A stretch of DNA of 64,000 bases from Phycisphaerae bacterium (lineage in GTDB: Bacteria > Planctomycetota > Phycisphaerae > UBA1845): NCBI GenBank assembly GCA_963666835.2, contig CAXXGO010000001.1, positions 160,001-224,000 of the forward strand, written 5' to 3'. Each line of letters starts with the position of its first letter. Positions within the stretch are counted from its first letter, which is position 1. Under the pieces are notes generated by a model that saw only the letters and a list, made by a program, of their open reading frames with translations, ran no database searches and was not told the origin of the DNA. The position numbers and the translations under genes are program-made. Of this stretch, positions 24,084 to 39,290 are shown one piece after another.

Positions 24084-24851
24084 TCAATTGGGCGATGCAT
24101 CCTGCGCCGCCCCGGCCAGGGCTCGTGCGTTCTCGAGGATTATCTGGGTCATATGCCCCACAGCCCGGCGGCGCTGGTCCATCTCCATATACACGTCCTT
24201 AAGAGCGAAACGAATTGCGGTACGCGACCCCAGTTCGTCCACTTGCCCGAGGAGCTTCTCCAGAGCTTCGGCGGCACCTTCCGGGTCGTCGTTCATCAAG
24301 TACAGCTCCACGATAGCCTGGGTGGCCATCATGACCGCCTCCTGTGATCCGAAAGCCACATCCCGCCAGTTCGTAACATACTCGAGCCGGTCAGTCATTC
24401 GCACCAGCTCTCGCCGTTCCATTTGGCGCTCTCGCTCCATAATCAGACGTTCTATTTCGAATTCATGGCGTTCGATCCCATTCTCCAACTGGGTCAACTT
24501 CCGGGACACGCCTTCTATTTCGTCCAAGCGCCCGTCTGAGACTATAGCCTGCCTGATAACGCGAAGCTCGAGCTGTTCGGAACGCAAATCGTACAGCTCG
24601 TCCTGCAGGCGTTCGAGCTTCTTCTCAAGCTCCTCTTGAGCGACTTTCTCTTCCAGTTCCGTGCGGATCTGGTCTTCATAACGCTCACGAGTGGCTTGCT
24701 GCATCTCCTGCTCACGATGTTCGCGGGCTCTACGAATCTCCCGTTCGCGGGGGTCTGCCCTGTCGGGTTGGTCAGCCCAACTCGACGCCACAGGCACCGC
24801 AACCAGGCACAACATCATCGTAACGGTAATAGCTCTGAGGGTCGGGATCAT
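24084..24851 (-). CDS. Secreted coiled-coil hypothetical protein, third gene of the ECF module
   Basis: Signal peptide ending ASSWA; E/R/Q-rich helical sequence; AGGAGAG SD. Confidence 0.75.
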   Translation of the reverse strand: MIPTLRAITVTMMLCLVAVPVASSWADQPDRADPREREIRRAREHREQEMQQATRERYEDQIRTELEEKVAQEELEKKLERLQDELYDLRSEQLELRVIRQAIVSDGRLDEIEGVSRKLTQLENGIERHEFEIERLIMERERQMERRELVRMTDRLEYVTNWRDVAFGSQEAVMMATQAIVELYLMNDDPEGAAEALEKLLGQVDELGSRTAIRFALKDVYMEMDQRRRAVGHMTQIILENARALAGAAQDASPN

Positions 24852-25410
24852 GCGTTTCTCTCCTATGTTCAATCACAAGACTCGGGGTTCGGTAACGTAG
24901 CCGGGAGGTTTTCGTCCCGGATGGATGGGCGAAAGAGGGTAGCGATGGTACGCGAGCGGCGGCCACCCCGGACGCTCGGTTCCTCGCGGCGTTTCCGGGG
25001 CAGATTAGCGGCGTTTTCGAATAACCGACGAAACTAAAGGCACCCGCCACTGTCTGAGGTCCACCGAGTACCGGAGGAATCGCCTCAGGCGTTTCCGGGG
25101 CAGGTCGCCACACCGCTATCAGCAAAGCCAAGCCGGCCGCCGTTGCTAACCCGGTCCGTGCCCAGAAACTGCTCCGCCGCCGGCGCGGTGGGGCCGCCGC
25201 TTCGGTCGGCGAAAAGACAAACGGCGGAACAACGCTGTCGTAGGTTCGGCGAAGGGCCTGAAGCCCCAGTCCGAGTCGTTCCAGTTCGACGGCTTGATTC
25301 GCGCACGAGGGGCAGTGTTGCAGATGGTCGGCCACGCGCTGTTCGTCACGCTCATCGAGTTTTTGACCGAGTCTCTCGGCCAGGAGTGTGGTACATTCAG
25401 CGCAGTCCAT
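24772..25410 (-). CDS. Zinc-finger (zf-HC2) transmembrane anti-sigma factor
   Basis: MDC...HLQHCPSC, then TM segment ATAAGLALLIAVW. The 3' end overlaps the next gene and is uncertain. Confidence 0.75.
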   Translation of the reverse strand: MDCAECTTLLAERLGQKLDERDEQRVADHLQHCPSCANQAVELERLGLGLQALRRTYDSVVPPFVFSPTEAAAPPRRRRSSFWARTGLATAAGLALLIAVWRPAPETPEAIPPVLGGPQTVAGAFSFVGYSKTPLICPGNAARNRASGVAAARVPSLPSFAHPSGTKTSRLRYRTPSLVIEHRRETHDPDPQSYYRYDDVVPGCGACGVELG

Positions 25411-25903
25411 CGGAAGCCTCCCTTGACGTTACGTTGGCCTGCAGGTTGGCGATCGCCTTGTGCAGGTTGCTCTTGACGGTTCCCTGCGGACATCCGAGGG
25501 TCTCCGCGGTATCCCGCGTCGACATCCCCACCAAAAAACGCAGCACCGTCACTTCGCGTTGCCGGTCGGGCAGCGCGTTTATGGCTGCATGAAGAAGCAA
25601 CTGCGGCAGCTCCGGCGGTCCGTGCGATCGGATCTGCGGTTCAACGGCGGCAAGTTCACCGGTCCACTCGACGGGCCTGTGCCGACCGGTCTCCCGGCAG
25701 ACTCGCACCGCGAAACCCGCCGCCCAAGTCCACCACGATACTCCGCTCCGGCGGTCCGCTCGGCGAGCCCACGCTCGTGTTAACGACTCCTGGGCGGCAT
25801 CACTCGCTCGATCCGCGCTGCCCAAAAGGGCCAGGCACAGCCGGTAGACCCGAGCTGAGAGGTCGGCGAAATCAGGCAACTCAAAGTCGCTTTGTCTTTC
25901 CAC
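25397..25903 (-). CDS. ECF RNA polymerase sigma factor
   Basis: Region 2 VYRLCLALLG...ASDAAQE; region 4 LPDRQREVTVLRF...TAETLGCPQGTVKSNLHKA. Start uncertain (GTG at 25903 or 25990). Confidence 0.85.
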   Translation of the reverse strand: MERQSDFELPDFADLSARVYRLCLALLGSADRASDAAQESLTRAWARRADRRSGVSWWTWAAGFAVRVCRETGRHRPVEWTGELAAVEPQIRSHGPPELPQLLLHAAINALPDRQREVTVLRFLVGMSTRDTAETLGCPQGTVKSNLHKAIANLQANVTSREASDGLR

Positions 25904-26176
25904 CTTAGGTCCCGCCGCTGCTTCCCGTTTGTTAATGCGAGTCCGAACGGATTGGTTCACCTCGGGCTCGGCAGAGCAGCCGAGAGCCACGCAAGTTCCG
26001 GAAACTGCCTGGGTTAAGAACCTACTAACTTAGCCGGCCCGGATCCTCACCCGTATGAAGGCCGTGCGCGTCAGTACCGCCGCGGATTAAGCCGACATAG
26101 AATCGGAGCACGATAACCCGGATTGTGCGCCGGGGGCAGTGTTACTGAAGAAGCACCCTATCGAGAGGTCCGGTCA

Positions 26177-31182: not shown

Positions 31183-31734
31183 TCAACCGCCGCTCTGACC
31201 GTCGCCGCCGTGCCGCCTTCCGGGTCCGTGCCCGGCGCCACCGCGCCGGCACCCTTCCGAGCCCGACTTGCCCCACCTGCTACAGTCGCGACAGCACTTC
31301 CTGCTGCACTCGCGCACCTTCGCGGCGCACAGGCCGTACAGTTGCTTCTGTTGCTGGGCAGTCAGATGCCCCCGCACGGTTATCAGATACTCGGCCACGC
31401 GCCGTTCGACCCGATTGTGGGCTTCAATAACCGCCTCTACGCGCTGGCGAATCTCGTCGTCGCCGGCATCTTCTTTCTCGAAGGTGGCCGCCAACTGTGA
31501 ACGCGCGTCGTGAAGTTCCCCTTGCAGCAAACCCAACTCTTCCGCAAAAACCGGATCCTGCTCCTTGATCGATTCGGCCTGCTCCGGATTCAAACCCAGA
31601 CGATCGGCAATAGGTGACAGAACTACGTCATTGCCCGCCGGACCTTGCGAGCGCATGGCCACCGTACCCACCAGGCTGCCCCCAAAGCAAAGCGCCGCCA
31701 CCAGGACGATTCCGATTGTGGTCTTCGCAATCAT
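31183..31734 (-). CDS. Periplasmic heavy-metal sensor / Spy-CpxP-CnrX-like protein with Cys-rich tail
   Basis: N-terminal TM, LGLNPEQ and HLTAQQQ (LTxxQ-like) motifs, tail CSRKCCRDC; ATGA overlap with the anti-sigma gene. Confidence 0.75.
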   Translation of the reverse strand: MIAKTTIGIVLVAALCFGGSLVGTVAMRSQGPAGNDVVLSPIADRLGLNPEQAESIKEQDPVFAEELGLLQGELHDARSQLAATFEKEDAGDDEIRQRVEAVIEAHNRVERRVAEYLITVRGHLTAQQQKQLYGLCAAKVRECSRKCCRDCSRWGKSGSEGCRRGGAGHGPGRRHGGDGQSGG

Positions 31735-32216
31735 GACGGCTCGCCTCCCACGACCGACTCCTCAGGCTCCAGTCCGCCGGATAAACCGGTGGCGGATCCG
31801 GCACCGAGCTCGATCCACTCCAATGCTCCGGCCATGCCGTGTAGTGTTGCGGGGCGCCCGCCGTTCGCCGAAGTCCTACCGGCCGGGACGAGATATCCGG
31901 CAACCACCCCCAGTCCGATGGCCAGGGCGATCGATGCGGCCAACCGAACCGGTACCATGCGGAACATCGCCCAGCCCGGCGGTTTCGCCGACGGTTGCCG
32001 CTCGTCCTCAACGGAAGCCAGAACGCGCGCGGTCAGGTCGCAACCCGAAACGTCCGGTTGCCAGCTATTCAGGGCGTTCCACGTTTCTGACATTTCAGCA
32101 TAAGCGGCGGCACAGGTCGCACAGCCTTCGAGGTGGCTGCGGAAGTCCCGCTGCTCGGAAGGCGACAGGTCTCCCGAGACCAGCCGAAGTACCAGACATG
32201 TCTGTGGACAAGTCAT
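31731..32216 (-). CDS. zf-HC2 transmembrane anti-sigma factor
   Basis: MTC...HLEGCATC; TM segment LAASIALAIGLGVVAGYLV. Confidence 0.85.
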   Translation of the reverse strand: MTCPQTCLVLRLVSGDLSPSEQRDFRSHLEGCATCAAAYAEMSETWNALNSWQPDVSGCDLTARVLASVEDERQPSAKPPGWAMFRMVPVRLAASIALAIGLGVVAGYLVPAGRTSANGGRPATLHGMAGALEWIELGAGSATGLSGGLEPEESVVGGEPS

Positions 32217-32237
32217 CAGAACGATCTCCAAGACTGA

Positions 32238-32264
32238 AACGAGCCGCTTTCCCGTATCCTGCGG
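32238..32264 (-). promoter_or_regulatory. Putative ECF promoter upstream of the anti-sigma gene
   Basis: Minus strand reads CCGCAGG-atacgggaaagcggct-CGTT (16-nt spacer); same motif at 32867 and 33248. Confidence 0.6.
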
Positions 32265-32271
32265 TTCATTC

Positions 32272-32829
32272 TCACGGTTTTTTGTACTCCTTAAGGGCTT
32301 TCCTGAGGTTCGCGTAACCTCGGGTGAGCAGCGATTCCACCGCCGATTCGGACCAACCGGTGGCCTCCACGACCGTCCTTTGGGGCAAACCCGAGAAACG
32401 GTGCAGAACAACGGCGAGCCGCTGTCGTTCCGGTAATGCGGCCACCGCGGCGCGGACAGCCGCAGCGCGATCTTCCTGTTCCACCGTCGTGCTCGGGCAC
32501 GCCGCCACCGGCTCCGCGACGTCGGGCGGGTCTCCCGAGAAGGGCCTTTGCTTCTTGAAGGCGTCCAGGCAGAGGTTCACGACAATGCGGTACAGCCAAG
32601 TGGTGAACCGAGCGGTAGGGCGATAACGCTCCGCCGACCTCCACACGCGAAGAAAGACCTCCTGGCCGATATCCTCCGCCAGAGTCATGTCACCCGTCGT
32701 CCGGCAGGCGATCTCCAAGACCCGGTGCTGATGCCGCTTGACGAGTTCGGCAAGTGCAGACCGCTCCCCCGCAGCCACTAAGGCCATCAGCGCCTCGTCA
32801 CTCGGACCGTCGGTCAGCACATCTGACAT
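32272..32829 (-). CDS. ECF RNA polymerase sigma factor
   Basis: AEDIGQEVFLRVW, FTTWLYRIVVNLCLD, LPERQRLAVVL, SESAVESLLTR. Confidence 0.92.
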   Translation of the reverse strand: MSDVLTDGPSDEALMALVAAGERSALAELVKRHQHRVLEIACRTTGDMTLAEDIGQEVFLRVWRSAERYRPTARFTTWLYRIVVNLCLDAFKKQRPFSGDPPDVAEPVAACPSTTVEQEDRAAAVRAAVAALPERQRLAVVLHRFSGLPQRTVVEATGWSESAVESLLTRGYANLRKALKEYKKP

Positions 32830-32866
32830 TATCGCATCGCCAGAAACCGGAGTCTCTCGAACGCAT

Positions 32867-32894
32867 CCGCAGGATACCGCAAAGGTCACTCGTT
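32867..32894 (+). promoter_or_regulatory. Putative ECF promoter (distal), pointing toward the Cys-rich gene
   Basis: CCGCAGG-ataccgcaaaggtcact-CGTT (17-nt spacer). Confidence 0.5.
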
Positions 32895-33247
32895 ATACAA
32901 ACAGGGAGAAAGAACCCGAAACCACGCGCGGCGCGGGTGCCCACCCCGGCGTTTGTCGGGCGCGGGTGCCCCATCCATTCCGGCGTTTGTTGGCCAGGAA
33001 CAGCCGCGCCGATTCCCCGCCGGAATGGGTGGGGGAGAGACCAGCCTCCGGCAGGCACTCGCGTTCTGCTCGATTCCCCACCCTTCGCCTCGGGCGTGGC
33101 GCGCATGCCGCATGTTCACCTGTTTACGGGGCTCTTTTGTCTACTGCGATATCCCGCAAGGCGAAGGACGGGGCACCCTCACGGGCCGGTCGCCCTTTGA
33201 TTTTCGGGCTGCCGAGTCACCGCAACCATGAAAAAACCCGGCATCGA

Positions 33248-33274
33248 CCGCAGGGCGGATCGGGCTCGGTCGTT
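33248..33274 (+). promoter_or_regulatory. Putative ECF promoter (proximal) of the Cys-rich gene
   Basis: CCGCAGG-gcggatcgggctcggt-CGTT (16-nt spacer), ~70 nt before ATG 33344. Confidence 0.55.
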
Positions 33275-33343
33275 CAACCCTCGGAAACGCAAGGAGCTCT
33301 CGCGATGGCGGCGAGCGGTTGGCAGCTTTGTTGGAGGAAGATC

Positions 33344-34255
33344 ATGAAAGGTATTTCGTTAACCTGTGCGGCGCTGGCGGCCTCAATACTCCTGACGGTC
33401 GGGCAGCCGACTCGTGCCACGGATGTGACGCCGTGCGGTCACGAGCGAATCGAAGGTGTGGTCTCTGCGGTAGACCTGGTAGCCCAGCGGCTGGTAGTGG
33501 ACGATGCGATAATTCAGATCTCGGACGAGACGAAGATCCACGGCACCCAGAACAAAGCGGATCTGGTCGATATCCGCGTCGGTCAGACCATCGTGGCGAT
33601 CGGAACAACCAAAGACGGCGTCCTGGCCGCCGCCCGGTTGAAGGTAAAACCCGGGAAAGGCCACCCCGAGTGCGGCGAATCCTGCGGTTTCGGCAAAGGT
33701 CCGTGTGCGAAGACCCCGCGTCGCAGCTCGGTCGACGATGTACGCGCGAACCCCTCGTGCCGGGGCGGATGCGACCGCTGCCCAAGCCAATGCGCGAAGG
33801 CTGAACGCCCGTGCGACGGCAACTGCCCCGGCGGTTGCACCTGCTCGGCGGCGAACTGTCACTGCGGCGGTGACTGCCGATCCGCGAAAGGCGGAAGCTC
33901 CTGCGATAGCGACTGTCCGTACTCGAAGGGCAAGTGCTCTTGTGAAGAAGACTGCCGTTGCTCAGAAGGCAAACGTCCCTGCAAAGGCGATTGCCACGGC
34001 GACTGCACCTGCTCAGCGGCGAAGTGTCAATGCGGCGGCGACTGCCGATTCGCGAAGGGCGGAAGCTCCTGCGATAGCGACTGTCCGTACTCGAAGGGCA
34101 AGTGTTCCTGTGAAGGAGACTGCCGCTGCTCAGAAGGCATACGCCCCTGCAAGGGTAATTGCCACGACGATTGCGCCAGCTCAGCGGCGAAATGCCACTG
34201 CGGCGGTAAGGGCAAGTGCCACCGGCACGGCGCGGCAAGACGATCTCGCGGTTAG
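33344..34255 (+). CDS. Secreted DUF5666-like OB-fold protein with metallothionein-like Cys-rich tandem-repeat tail
   Basis: GGAGG SD; signal peptide; IEGVVSAVD...TKI...DIRVGQTIVAIG...LAAARL; about 39 Cys in the last ~195 aa, in 56-aa (168-bp) repeats. Confidence 0.75.
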   Translation: MKGISLTCAALAASILLTVGQPTRATDVTPCGHERIEGVVSAVDLVAQRLVVDDAIIQISDETKIHGTQNKADLVDIRVGQTIVAIGTTKDGVLAAARLKVKPGKGHPECGESCGFGKGPCAKTPRRSSVDDVRANPSCRGGCDRCPSQCAKAERPCDGNCPGGCTCSAANCHCGGDCRSAKGGSSCDSDCPYSKGKCSCEEDCRCSEGKRPCKGDCHGDCTCSAAKCQCGGDCRFAKGGSSCDSDCPYSKGKCSCEGDCRCSEGIRPCKGNCHDDCASSAAKCHCGGKGKCHRHGAARRSRG

Positions 34256-34638: not shown

Positions 34639-37596
34639 TTACTTGCCGCCGCGCTGCTCTAACAGGGCGGCAAGCTTTGTGCGGCCTTTCAGCTTCGCGT
34701 AATGCAGCGGTGTAAAACCGGCCTGGTCCGTTGCATTGACCGCAGCGCCGTTGTCCAGAAGGACCTCAGCCAGCGCGGTCAGCAGAGTATCCACTTCCGG
34801 CTCCGAGGGCCCCTGAGAAGCCGCAATGATAAGCGGCGTTGCTCCCGTCTCACTCCGGGCGTCCGCCTTCGCTCCATCGGCGATAAGCTGCCTGGCAGTA
34901 TCCACCTTGAACCGTCGGGCCGCAGCGTGCAGCGGCGTTTCGCCCATCGCATCGGTTGCGTTCACCTTGGCCCCGAGCTTCACTAGCTCTCCAACGAGCT
35001 TCTTGTGGTTGTTCATCGCGGCATGATGAAGCGGAGTGCGCCCCGCGTGATCCGCGGCCATGATGTCAGCCCCGGCTTCCATCAGCGGCGCGAGCAGCTC
35101 AGAACACCCTTTCACGGCCACAACATGAAGCGGGGTGAAGCGCTGGTCGTCGCGTGCATTCACCTCAGCCCCGCCGGCAATCAACATCCGGGCAGTTGCC
35201 GCGCGGGCTTGGCGTGCTGCTCCTGTCCGGTGGGCCGCGGCCAGCAGGTGCAGCGGCCGCTCGCCACGCTTATTCGACGTGTTCGGTGAAGCATCCGCGG
35301 CCAACAGACTCTCGACCGCCGCCGTACGTATCTCCGCAGCGGCGATGTGCAGCGGGGTATTACCGCGCTGATCCCTGGCAGATACCAGGTCCGGATTATC
35401 GACCAGCAAGGCGTTGATAGCCGGCGCATCTTCCGCCCGCACCGCGGCGAACAAATCGCCCGCACTATCGGCGAATGCCGAAGGACCCCCGACTATCGTG
35501 AAGACCACAGCTACAATGAGGAGTTCCGCCTTATTCATCTTGTTCCGCCTGCGTAACCGGTCGGTAGTCCGCGGCGAAGATGCCGTTGCGCTGGCTATCA
35601 TCGGGAACCGGTGCCGGAAGATCAAAGTGCCCAAGGTCATAATCAGCAGGGCCATTGCCGCCGCTCCCCACTCGGAAACCGTTGGAACGGCCTCGCCGGA
35701 GTTCGGGAGAACCGTAAAGACCGCGTCACTCTCGTCCCAGCCCCCGAAGGCGCCGCCGCCGTACACCGTCCGGCACCGTACCTTGTGGTTCGCACCGTCA
35801 GTAGTCGGAACCCAGACCGTTGACGTGGCCCCGGTGGGGGACTCGACCGTAATGTCGAACCACGTCGTATTATCTTGCGTCAAGGTAAGATCGTCGATCC
35901 AGACCGTGTCCGGTTGCGTAGTCGTGTTGAAGTCCTTGTCGTATTCCCATTTCAGCGTGTGCGGACCTGCGCCCAAAGTCGTCGAATAGTAGGTCCACGC
36001 GACCGAGCCGGACTCCGAGAACTGCAGAATGTCGTCGATGTAGAAGTTGAAATCGTCGTAGCCGTCCTCGGTACCGACCCGATACCAGAAACTCACCTCG
36101 CCGCCATCGGCGGAGCGCGTCATCCAGCTCACCTCATCGTCGTCGATAGCACCCGAGCGGGCAGCGTATGTACCCCCGTGAGCGGTACCCGATGCCACAA
36201 ACCAGGGTACATCTCCGCCGGTTACGAACTCCGCCGCGAGGCTACCGCTCTCGAAGCCCTCGGTGGTTACCGTGTTCTCCCCGTAGTTGGACGAATACTG
36301 CACCTGGAACGCCGTACTGGAGTTGCCCGTCCAAGATACGGTTGACGAGACGCCAGCCTCCAAGGTCTCACCGCCGTTCGGCGATACTACGGTCGTAGCC
36401 GGCTTCGCCAACGCGACATCCCACCGCGTGGCGTCACCCGCGTGTACTACCAGATCCGGAAACACCGCCGTGTCGTAGCCCTTCGCCTCGACCGACACGG
36501 TGTACGTGCCCGGGAGCAGCATGCGGTGATAATCGCCCACGTCCGGGTCGGTGTATACCGCGTGATCCCGTCCTTCTATCGTGACAGTTGCCTGACGCGG
36601 CAGGCCGGTGGCAGCGTCCGTAACGATACCCCGTACACCGATGAGCGCCGTCGCCATGTAAGCCAACATGGAATCGCGGTTGTTATTCCAATAGGTCGGC
36701 AACTGAGAGGCCGCGGGGTACGGCGACTGATCGTTGCTTATCTCCAGCGTTACCTCGTTGCAGCCCAAGTAGTGGTAGTTCCAATCCTGCATTCCCTGAT
36801 CGATTCGGTACCATGCCGCCCCGTTCGTAATCCCGTGATACCACGACCCATTCCACATCGGCGAGTTGTGTTGAGAGTATTCTTCGCTGATGTAAACGAA
36901 CAAGTCTTCGTCCGGGGACGGCGTGAACACACTCGCCCCTTCAGGGTTGTTGTCAAGCGGATAATTGACCACCAGAGCTCCCGTGTGGATGTTGGCCGAA
37001 AGCGTGAACGATTCGCCGAAACACCAGTTCATCACGACTCCCGTCTCGGCTGCCCGGCCGGCCGGAGTGTTGTTCGGGCTGGTGTAGGGATCGGGGAAAT
37101 CGCGGTTCAAATCTACGCCGTTGGCGTTTCGCCTCGTGCGGGTGCCGGCCATGTACCCGTCGGGGTTCATCAGCGGCATGATCCAGATGTCCATCTCATC
37201 GACCAGGTGGGTGATGTCCGGATCGACGCCGTAGTTGTCTGTGAGATGGTCAATCAGATACAAGCACATCTCGTTACCGACGATTTCGTTGCCGTGCATG
37301 GTCGAGATGTACTTGAACTCCGGCTCATCCTCTTCTGCCGGCACGTTGTCGCTGATGCGCAAAGCCCAAAGCTCCCGGCCTTGCACACTCGAGCCCAAAT
37401 CGTAAAGCTGGCAGATTGACCCGTGATCCGCCACCGTGTCGGAGAGGAACTGGCCTATCTCGGTGTGGCTGCGGTAGGTCTGCGCCGTTACCGGCGCGGT
37501 CCCGCAGGCCATTACCGCCAAGCCCGCCAGAACGCGTATGCCCAGCGGGCACCGCTTACTCGTTTGTGCAAGATCTAGGGAATGACGAATATGCAC
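34639..37596 (-). CDS. M14 zinc carboxypeptidase with IPTL-CTERM-like sorting signal, in frame with a signal-peptide-bearing ankyrin-repeat protein
   Basis: MHGNE, RRNANGVDLNRDFPD, NIHTGALVVNYP, GMQDWNY, EVTLE; VPTVSEWG+TM+RHR; then MNKAELL... (ATG 35538) and repeated TPLH ankyrin units. Confidence 0.85.
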   Translation of the reverse strand: MHIRHSLDLAQTSKRCPLGIRVLAGLAVMACGTAPVTAQTYRSHTEIGQFLSDTVADHGSICQLYDLGSSVQGRELWALRISDNVPAEEDEPEFKYISTMHGNEIVGNEMCLYLIDHLTDNYGVDPDITHLVDEMDIWIMPLMNPDGYMAGTRTRRNANGVDLNRDFPDPYTSPNNTPAGRAAETGVVMNWCFGESFTLSANIHTGALVVNYPLDNNPEGASVFTPSPDEDLFVYISEEYSQHNSPMWNGSWYHGITNGAAWYRIDQGMQDWNYHYLGCNEVTLEISNDQSPYPAASQLPTYWNNNRDSMLAYMATALIGVRGIVTDAATGLPRQATVTIEGRDHAVYTDPDVGDYHRMLLPGTYTVSVEAKGYDTAVFPDLVVHAGDATRWDVALAKPATTVVSPNGGETLEAGVSSTVSWTGNSSTAFQVQYSSNYGENTVTTEGFESGSLAAEFVTGGDVPWFVASGTAHGGTYAARSGAIDDDEVSWMTRSADGGEVSFWYRVGTEDGYDDFNFYIDDILQFSESGSVAWTYYSTTLGAGPHTLKWEYDKDFNTTTQPDTVWIDDLTLTQDNTTWFDITVESPTGATSTVWVPTTDGANHKVRCRTVYGGGAFGGWDESDAVFTVLPNSGEAVPTVSEWGAAAMALLIMTLGTLIFRHRFPMIASATASSPRTTDRLRRRNKMNKAELLIVAVVFTIVGGPSAFADSAGDLFAAVRAEDAPAINALLVDNPDLVSARDQRGNTPLHIAAAEIRTAAVESLLAADASPNTSNKRGERPLHLLAAAHRTGAARQARAATARMLIAGGAEVNARDDQRFTPLHVVAVKGCSELLAPLMEAGADIMAADHAGRTPLHHAAMNNHKKLVGELVKLGAKVNATDAMGETPLHAAARRFKVDTARQLIADGAKADARSETGATPLIIAASQGPSEPEVDTLLTALAEVLLDNGAAVNATDQAGFTPLHYAKLKGRTKLAALLEQRGGK

Positions 37597-38130: not shown

Positions 38131-38369
38131 TTCCGGATCGTCCTCTCCGCACTTACCCACGGCGCCGGTGCTGGAACGTCACGCCGATCTTGGGTGATTC
38201 TTGGTTCAACATTTTTCGCCCCGTTCGCACGTCGGGCGACGGAGTTGGCAGATTATAACAGTTCACGAGATCGCGCCTCTGCAAGACGATGTCCTTCTGC
38301 CGCACAATGGCAGTTCCGTACGGCACGATCGAGGCCCTACGCCTACAGTCAACAGCGCGCAACCCCCTC

Positions 38370-38560
38370 GTAGGGCACGGTCGAGGCACGCGGGTGCCCC
38401 GTCCATGCCGGCGTTTGTTGCGCTGAAATGCCGCATCGCCCCGCCGTCGGCATGGGTGGGGGACGGATTGGGTAGGGCACGGTCGAGGTACGAGACCTGC
38501 CACGAAGGCCCGCGATGCGTGAAGACCTCGTAGGGCACGGTCGAGGCACGAGACCTGCCG
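38370..38560 (+). repeat. GTAG-type REP copies
   Basis: GTAGGGCACGGTCGAGGNACGAGACCTGCC at 38472 and 38530; partial copy at 38370. Confidence 0.8.
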
Positions 38561-38726
38561 CAAAAACGCATGCTGTCCAAGCCGAACGCTGTTGTACGAC
38601 CCACTTCGGGGTTGGTGCGGAAGGGGGCTTTGTGTGCCCCAGGGTGGCACTAGAGCGGCTGCGCCGCTTCGTTTACCCTGGGCTTTGCTGTTCAACGCCT
38701 TGGCGTAGGTTCAAAAGGCGCAGATC

Positions 38727-39290
38727 GCGCGAAGACTCACGGCAGGTCTCGTTCCTCGACCGTGCCCTACACCCGCCGATGCAGCCCTACCCATACCGGC
38801 GGCGTTATCTGTCATACTGTAGGCAGGATGCCTGCGTTGCGCGAAGACTCACGGCAGGTCTCGTTCCTCGACCGTGCCCTACACCCGCTGATGCAGCCCT
38901 ACCCATACCGGCGGCGTTATCTGTCATACTGTAGGCAGGATGCCTGCGTTGCGCGAAGACTCACGGCAGGTCTCGTTCCTCGACCGTGCCCTACACCCGC
39001 TGATGCAGCCCTACCCATACCGGCGGCGTTATCTGTCATACTGTAGGCAGGATCCCTGCGTTACGCGAAGACTCACGGCAGGTCTCGTTCCTCGACCGTG
39101 CCCTACACCCGCTGATGCAGCCCTACCCATACCGGCGGCGTTATCTGTCATACTGTAGGCAGGATCCCTGCGTTACGCGAAGACTCACGGCAGGTCTCGT
39201 TCCTCGACCGTGCTCTACACCTGCCCGTGCAGCCCTACCCATAACGGCGGGGTTATCTGCCATACTGCAGGCAGGATGCCTGTGCTAAGC
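38727..39290. repeat. Tandem array, 5 x 112 bp, one REP per unit
   Basis: GAAGACTCACGGCAGGTC starts at 38731, 38843, 38955, 39067 and 39179; units are near-identical and the last is diverged. Confidence 0.92.

Follow-up and report, generated by a model that had tools for sequence, protein, structure and literature searches.

What does the sigma factor at the centre of this locus switch on, and is the Cys-rich secreted protein encoded opposite it a sink for metals? The locus lies at positions 31,183 to 34,255 of the window, by which we mean the whole 64,000-nucleotide stretch of Phycisphaerae bacterium contig CAXXGO010000001.1 that was analysed. It comprises a minus-strand triad of genes for an extracytoplasmic function (ECF) sigma factor, a zinc-finger anti-sigma factor and a Metal_resist-type periplasmic partner, together with a divergent gene for a signal-peptide protein with a Cys-rich tail (the Cys protein). 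A first-pass annotation made from the letters alone had placed these four open reading frames (ORFs) and named their domains; the ORF coordinates bear it out, and so does Pfam for the triad. As we argue below, a shared promoter motif, CCGCAGG-N16/17-CGTT, very probably makes the Cys protein an output of this sigma factor; that the protein is an exported, metallothionein-like metal sink is our best reading of it, held tentatively and at a little under an even chance. The features of the locus are as follows.

31183..31734 (-): Metal_resist (CnrX/NccX/Spy-like) periplasmic partner, membrane-anchored, 183 aa, PF13801
31731..32216 (-): single-pass anti-sigma factor of the zinc-binding anti-sigma (ZAS, HxxxCxxC) type, 161 aa, zf-HC2
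32235..32264 (-): P1, predicted ECF promoter between the sigma and anti-sigma genes, 23.1 bits
32272..32829 (-): ECF sigma factor, 185 aa, Sigma70_r2 and r4_2 (Pfam)
32867..32897 (+): P2a, predicted ECF promoter with a 17-nt spacer, just past the sigma start and directed towards the Cys gene, 18.9 bits
33248..33277 (+): P2b, predicted ECF promoter immediately 5' of the Cys gene, 26.7 bits
33344..34255 (+): Cys protein, 303 aa, with 39 of its 41 Cys at or after residue 110
33344..33670 (+): predicted Sec signal peptide and DUF5666-like oligonucleotide/oligosaccharide-binding (OB) fold domain (residues 34-101) of the Cys protein
33671..34255 (+): 194-aa tail with 39 Cys (20% Cys), running to the stop codon
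34271..34304 (+): terminator-like 15-bp hairpin with a short T-run, downstream of the Cys gene stop

The link between the Cys gene and the sigma factor rests on the promoter motif, which occurs three times at the locus, at 32264 (-), 32867 (+) and 33248 (+). P2b is the joint best site of the 6.02-Mb genome when scored with a matrix trained without the window sites, and the genome background amounts to 166 core matches; because two copies stand 5' of the Cys gene and one of them is joint best in the genome, we regard the link, which the first-pass annotation had proposed, as well supported. In relatives, the exact core is found 5' of the anti-sigma gene (the P1 position) in 29 of the 43 loci for which sequence on that side is available, and at the P2 position, facing away from the start of the sigma gene, in 17 of 40. 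A metagenome control, for which 75 of 80 loci were scored and 5 partial matches omitted, gave the same picture for sigma factors of at least 45% identity (P1 9/12, P2 7/14; 7/10 and 7/12 minus two duplicate loci), as against 1/57 and 0/51 for distant ECFs. Genome-wide counts of the strict motif (37 in 16 triad-bearing relatives vs 27 in 44 others) are partly circular and are not used as support. It is highly probable, on these sequence patterns, that the motif is the promoter of this sigma factor, giving negative feedback through P1, which is predicted to drive the anti-sigma and Metal_resist genes, and output through P2. P1 had escaped the first-pass annotation; with this site between the sigma and anti-sigma genes, the three genes of the proposed operon are probably not transcribed simply as a single unit. 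On the sigma factor's own strand the motif is absent 5' of the sigma gene at every locus (best 9.9 bits), leaving positive autoregulation unsupported. A search confined to the region 5' of sigma genes would miss the motif, since it lies 3' of the gene and also on the other strand.

Several smaller observations concern the motif and the region around it. The promoter slots of three relatives' loci (L025, L056 and L058) show CGTC instead of CGTT, a possible co-variation of sigma factor and -10 box, and L051 carries the motif in tandem copies. Two near-identical motif-like matches lie at a contig end of this genome (G000:C1:2168186-2168280, G000 denoting this genome), beside sequence that resembles a CRISPR repeat. 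Between the two plus-strand promoters, at 32930-33173, there is a 13-nt direct repeat (spacing 29) with 17- and 15-bp inverted repeats; despite the 17-bp inverted repeat, a structured RNA in the intergenic region was rejected, with no Rfam match at E 1 and a folding z of -0.29.

The triad itself recurs in relatives, and the Cys tail does not. The anti-sigma factor matches zf-HC2 at 25.3 bits (cut-off 22.2), has a single hydrophobic helix (hydropathy 2.24 across 19 residues), and overlaps the start of the Metal_resist gene with its stop codon; the best NCBIfam match of the sigma factor, PRK05602, scores 174.8 bits, below the cut-off of 208. The periplasmic partner matches PF13801 Metal_resist at 33 bits (cut-off 29.2), and the best PDB matches to its family profile are NccX (E 3.5e-5) and CnrX (E 4.7e-4); it is likely a co-sensor. 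The Metal_resist protein is matched in 16 of 60 relatives, and all 17 first loci have the sigma factor, 16 have the partner and 15 the anti-sigma factor; a profile search picked out 30 of 401 class-level genomes, and 27 later loci were added, 26 from those of the 30 that were new and one of separate origin. The partner's lineage-specific Cys/Gly/Arg tail with CxxxCCxxC, to which the first-pass annotation had drawn attention, is indeed present in the window protein, which is the only one of 47 homologues to carry it; as a conserved site it is ruled out. Zero Cys are found in 25 of the 47 tails, and a Cys at profile position 140 is retained in 30 of the 47. A second triad, of ECF sigma factor, zf-HC2 anti-sigma factor and secreted coiled-coil protein, lies 5 kb off (24084-25990, minus strand), with a core motif match at 24606, within its third gene, that is probably due to chance.

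The tail of the Cys protein is metallothionein-like in composition, being high in Cys, arranged in CxC and CxxxC clusters, and poor in aromatic and hydrophobic residues. The first-pass description of some 39 clustered Cys with His and few aromatic residues agrees with the counts, which are 9 CxC, 15 CxxxC, 6 His and 4 aromatic residues. Beyond that description, the tail contains a tandem repeat (33796-34206; 168-nt unit, 2.4 copies, 86%) whose 56-residue unit holds 13 Cys in a 7-Cys block and a 6-Cys block, the latter including CxCx3CxC in each repeat; two full copies are followed by a partial third that is short by one Cys. Between repeats 1 and 2, 15 of 24 mismatches fall on third codon positions, and 13/13 Cys are retained although 11 codons are non-synonymous; a 98%-identical protein differs at 5 positions, none a Cys. 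Given the third-position bias between copies and the full Cys retention in that protein, the Cys gene appears to be coding and under selection. Its composition also sets it apart within its own genome, which encodes 21 secreted Cys-rich ORFs including this one: the densest 100 tail residues contain 24 Cys and 1 hydrophobic residue, compared with 9-19 and 13-37 in the 20 others, and CxC per Cys is 0.23, compared with at most 0.09; CxxxC is likewise far commoner in the tail. The genome as a whole encodes many large acidic Cys-rich repeat proteins, and 116 frames have at least 15 Cys per 100 residues.

Ahead of the tail, a hydropathy scan calls a Sec-type signal peptide without twin arginine (another in-frame start is possible at 33305). 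The domain that follows was first read as a DUF5666-like OB fold. Its model (pLDDT 84) is an OB fold, with PilY2 (E 6.6e-4) and CusF (E 9.6e-4) nearest in Foldseek; its DUF5666 score, 22.7 bits, is below the Pfam gathering cut-off of 27, which close OB-domain homologues in L037, L042 and L047 pass. Predicting the mature protein from its single sequence gave a pLDDT of 41.7 and was uninformative. Homologues of the whole protein are scarce: a word-index search of 3117 candidates of 166-531 residues returned the 98%-identical protein as its sole match, 0 of the 60 relatives match, no homologue of the whole protein was found adjoining any triad in the relatives' loci, and the ESM Atlas gave just weak DUF5666 look-alikes (0.77). 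Among 1.84 billion representatives there were 33 matches, 32 of them covering the OB region; an OB-domain homologue is labelled Planctomycetota. Searched against family models, including known metallothionein families, the tail matched none in Pfam (E 0.1) or NCBIfam (E 0.01).

Other genes behind the motif extend the likely regulon. In relatives, the corresponding slots are taken by secreted proteins rich in Gly, Arg and Cys that are unrelated to the window protein. A signal-peptide ORF lies opposite every one of the 17 P2 sites in relatives, compared with 11 of 23 loci lacking an exact P2, a count that is partly built in since the ORF listing was restricted to signal-peptide ORFs. The proteins in this slot are mostly small and Gly-rich with a recurring RDGSC-like motif; in L037 the slot is occupied by a DUF5666 protein behind the motif, and OB-domain homologues stand behind the motif in L037, L042 and L047. 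Unrelated proteins of 21-54 Cys occur in the motif-bearing loci L021, L026, L029, L032 and L076, and the five other motif-linked Cys-rich proteins are, like the tail, poor in hydrophobic residues (1-8). In this genome, the other top-scoring site is on contig C6:

G000:C6:1960887-1963391: distal regulon unit (L104) of motif, secreted tetratricopeptide repeat (TPR) protein with a Cys/Lys tail, and NapH-like Fe-S membrane protein

The TPR protein of this unit shares 40% identity with the product of a gene that clusters with the L032 triad, and the same TPR/NapH-like pair stands behind the motif in L076. Of 43 distal strict-motif sites chosen, 41 were examined, and 12 of these precede recurring secreted families, while many others lie within long frames and look like chance. 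Pfam, run on 48 hand-picked proteins drawn mostly from 121 candidates, found DUF2202 (ferritin-like) in 6, DUF4405 (a cytochrome) in 5 and Fer4_5 in 2, as well as a two-HMA protein, an OEP/CusB/AcrB pump with HMBD and YHS domains, and a ZIP transporter; none of the large Cys-rich or small RDGSC proteins among the 48 fell into a Pfam family. DUF4405 has been described as binding heme b (bioRxiv 2024.03.13.584918), and ferrosome clusters too contain DUF2202 and DUF4405 (bioRxiv 2020.01.10.902569). This genome gave no match to HMA or DUF2202. In it, the heavy-metal resistance-nodulation-division (RND) operon (TIGR00914; best upstream score 9.9 bits) and the P-type ATPase (best 10.9 bits) lack the motif, in keeping with the first-pass expectation of an output other than the usual efflux.

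Two observations on regulon members elsewhere stand apart. A family of small secreted proteins and lipoproteins with repeated RLRDGSC-like motifs lies behind the promoter in L022, L025, L038, L040-L042, L044, L047, L048, L051, L064 and L069, the members scanned having no Pfam or NCBIfam match. At L076:2959-3912, behind the motif, an unrelated secreted protein combines a folded-looking N-domain with tandem CxxxC repeats (22 Cys) and appears to be a convergent counterpart of the window Cys protein.

A mechanism can be proposed from these parts. The zinc-finger anti-sigma factor likely holds the ECF sigma factor, the CnrX-like periplasmic partner likely tunes the system, and the sigma factor is predicted to switch on CCGCAGG-N16/17-CGTT promoters. 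One output would be the Cys protein, predicted to be exported and to carry an OB fold; its 13-Cys repeats would likely form thiolate clusters with soft metals (Cu(I), Ag, Cd, Zn). Speculatively, the co-regulated NapH-like Fe-S membrane protein would give the electrons that keep exported thiols reduced. Whether the system responds to metal, or to envelope stress linked to metal, and whether the tail is a metal sink seem to us about evenly balanced. The fuller proposal is of a planctomycete ECF regulon, not described before, whose exported products would be unmodified modular metallothioneins of high capacity, each of independent origin in a hypervariable gene slot. The window protein would have been fused to a CusF-like OB domain and have converged on the blocks of fungal Cu-thioneins, and a co-regulated Fe-S or heme membrane protein would keep the periplasmic thiols reduced; taken whole, we consider this proposal doubtful.

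A number of observations weigh against the metal-sink reading. The genome encodes two VKOR genes and DsbD and the signal peptide has no twin arginine, so the tail would likely enter an oxidising periplasm unfolded, where its 40 mature Cys could all pair as disulfides. The four-gene synteny that the first-pass annotation proposed to test is not supported, as the tail has no detected homologue in the relatives or among the 1.84 billion representatives, and OB-domain homologues do lack it: the 11 of 32 OB-domain homologues inspected have Gly/Arg-rich tails, DUF2202-like domains or extra OB domains, with few Cys. In the divergent slot, 9 of 17 relatives' proteins have 4-8 Cys and none more than 8, and the Gly content reaches 14% or more in 15 of the 17. 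Large secreted Cys-rich genes lie 3' of the partner gene in 5 of the 17 first loci and in 0 of the 27 later ones, and as the typical output they fail on that count; four of the five lie behind P1 without a promoter of their own, and the fifth, L036, has a distant sigma factor and no motif. HMA and efflux targets occur in one genome each. On the sensing side, the CnrX ligands His42, His46, Glu63, His119 and Met123 correspond to L, A, D, Y and V in the window partner, so with just an acidic residue kept at Glu63 and four of five ligands gone, the partner is without the CnrX site; among the 47 homologues, His does not rank among the six most frequent residues at either of the first two positions, and Met is found in 4 at the last. 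The OB domain resembles the periplasmic Cu(I)/Ag(I) chaperones CusF/SilF as a small exported OB fold (Foldseek E 9.6e-4, TMq 0.50), although identity is 14% and PilY2 scores equally well. We take the Cu(I) site ligands of CusF/SilF to be His, Met, Met and Trp; with 0 Met, 0 Trp and 1 His in residues 34-101, the OB domain does not have that site.

The strongest competing account keeps the same regulon and makes the tail a thiol/disulfide element, which would either buffer redox state or form an envelope patch crosslinked by disulfides. It would be made in response to oxidative or thiol stress, with the zinc-finger anti-sigma factor or the partner's conserved Cys as the sensor. The two VKOR genes, DsbD and the 21 secreted Cys-rich ORFs of the genome fit it, as do the retention of the partner Cys at position 140 (30/47) where the CnrX His/Met site is not kept, the membrane electron carriers among the regulon partners (Fer4_5, DUF4405), and the Cys-rich wall proteins known in Planctomycetales (PMC8567305). 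We nevertheless judge it rather unlikely: the number of Cys per repeat is odd (13), with the third copy short by one, and the dense CxC and missing hydrophobic core are unlike the genome's other secreted Cys-rich proteins. Disulfides within CxC are strained.

Clearly unlikely, in our view, is a regulon that makes secreted, disordered Gly/Arg/Gln-rich envelope-stress proteins, in a response of the Spy/CpxP kind, with the Cys expansion being a recent and incidental repeat amplification. Gly-richness is indeed steadier than Cys-richness in the divergent slot, some members of which have 0-2 Cys (L043, L048, L112), and the 25 of 47 Cys-free partner tails, a weak Pfam LTXXQ match and the orphan status of the tail point the same way. 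Incidental amplification would sit poorly, however, with the 13/13 Cys kept through 11 non-synonymous codons, with the unchanged Cys of the 98%-identical protein, and with the recurrence of unrelated 21-54-Cys proteins in five motif-bearing loci. That the Cys gene is a chance neighbour outside this sigma factor's control is very improbable, even though no homologue of the whole protein was found beside any triad and the sigma and Cys gene start codons are 514 bp apart, given the two upstream motif copies, one joint best in the genome, and given that L037 has a DUF5666 gene in the corresponding slot, likewise preceded by the motif.

Among described regulators, the closest in outline is CnrYXH-CnrCBA of Cupriavidus metallidurans (ECF291), which likewise combines an ECF sigma factor, a membrane anti-sigma factor and a CnrX/NccX-homologous partner (PMC6851896, PMC7826278). 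CnrY is a class II anti-sigma factor at -2, whereas the window has a zf-HC2 anti-sigma factor at +1, and CnrYXH runs an RND metal pump, whereas the RND pump of this genome is without the motif and a motif-linked pump appears in one relative (G018). With a different anti-sigma type and four of five CnrX ligands missing, identity with CnrYXH is ruled out, and the CnrH/CnrY/CnrX architecture assigned in the first-pass annotation falls with it. ECF281 resembles the window in having a zinc-finger, one-helix anti-sigma factor at +1 and a heavy-metal resistance protein at +2 but has the predicted promoter GGAACTT / GTCTAA rather than CCGCAGG / CGTT; ECF290 and ECF111 share the heavy-metal protein at +2 (Casas-Pastor 2021, PMC7826278). 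The predicted promoter of ECF289, CCCAAGGA / CGTCTxA, resembles the window motif, while its anti-sigma factor is a vWA-DUF3520 protein and not a 161-aa zf-HC2 protein (PMC7826278). Within the covered part of PMC7826278, the taxa given for ECF281, ECF289 and ECF111 include no planctomycete, the descriptions of ECF281, ECF289, ECF290 and ECF111 name no secreted Cys-rich output, and neither GCAGG nor CAGG occurs in the portion of the supplement searched, the tables of which may bear on group assignment.

For the Cys protein there are several partial parallels. Bufferins under SigF/NrsF are also ECF-controlled, Sec-exported and Cys-bearing, and bind copper in the periplasm; they need an MNIO (DUF692) enzyme, and the window protein is far larger and has an OB domain (PMC11626156). 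The bufferin assignment was rejected, as the 92%-complete genome has 0 matches to MNIO (PF05114) and the Caulobacter control was positive. The fungal Cu-thioneins TmMT and CnMT are likewise built of tandem 7-/6-Cys blocks with CxC and CxCx3CxC in a Gly/Ser/Lys-rich setting (PMC4755600); no sequence homology to the window protein was detected, and the latter adds a signal peptide and a folded N-domain; the likeness of the 7-/6-Cys blocks to TmMT is a resemblance, not homology. Csp1, a Tat-exported four-helix bundle, sets a precedent for an exported Cys-based Cu store, and the bacterial metallothioneins SmtA and MymT are small, unlike the window protein (PMC7558416). A literature search at the level of titles and abstract openings, with subscription journals and a planctomycete ECF survey outside its scope, found neither this regulon nor an exported bacterial metallothionein of this kind.

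The motif CCGCAGG-N16/17-CGTT, marking the likely regulon, is likely new here. It makes an uncharacterised triad into a defined, testable regulon, and gathers several orphan secreted proteins together with DUF2202, DUF4405 and DUF5666 genes into one response. Should the tail bind metals, the Cys protein would count as a bacterial metallothionein that is exported and multi-domain, able, judging from its Cys count, to hold roughly 10-20 ions. Such a protein would extend a class whose known bacterial members are small, would reveal how a thiolate sink can persist in the periplasm, and could serve as a scaffold for metal capture.

Two further features lie downstream of the Cys gene. A 985-aa ORF on the minus strand (34639-37596) encodes an M14 carboxypeptidase with a weak IPTL-CTERM match at residues 636-652, followed, without an intervening stop, by ankyrin repeats that come after another stretch resembling a signal peptide; it is perhaps two fused genes. 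At about 38260-39050 there are long direct repeats, apparently non-coding, with identical translations in overlapping ORFs.

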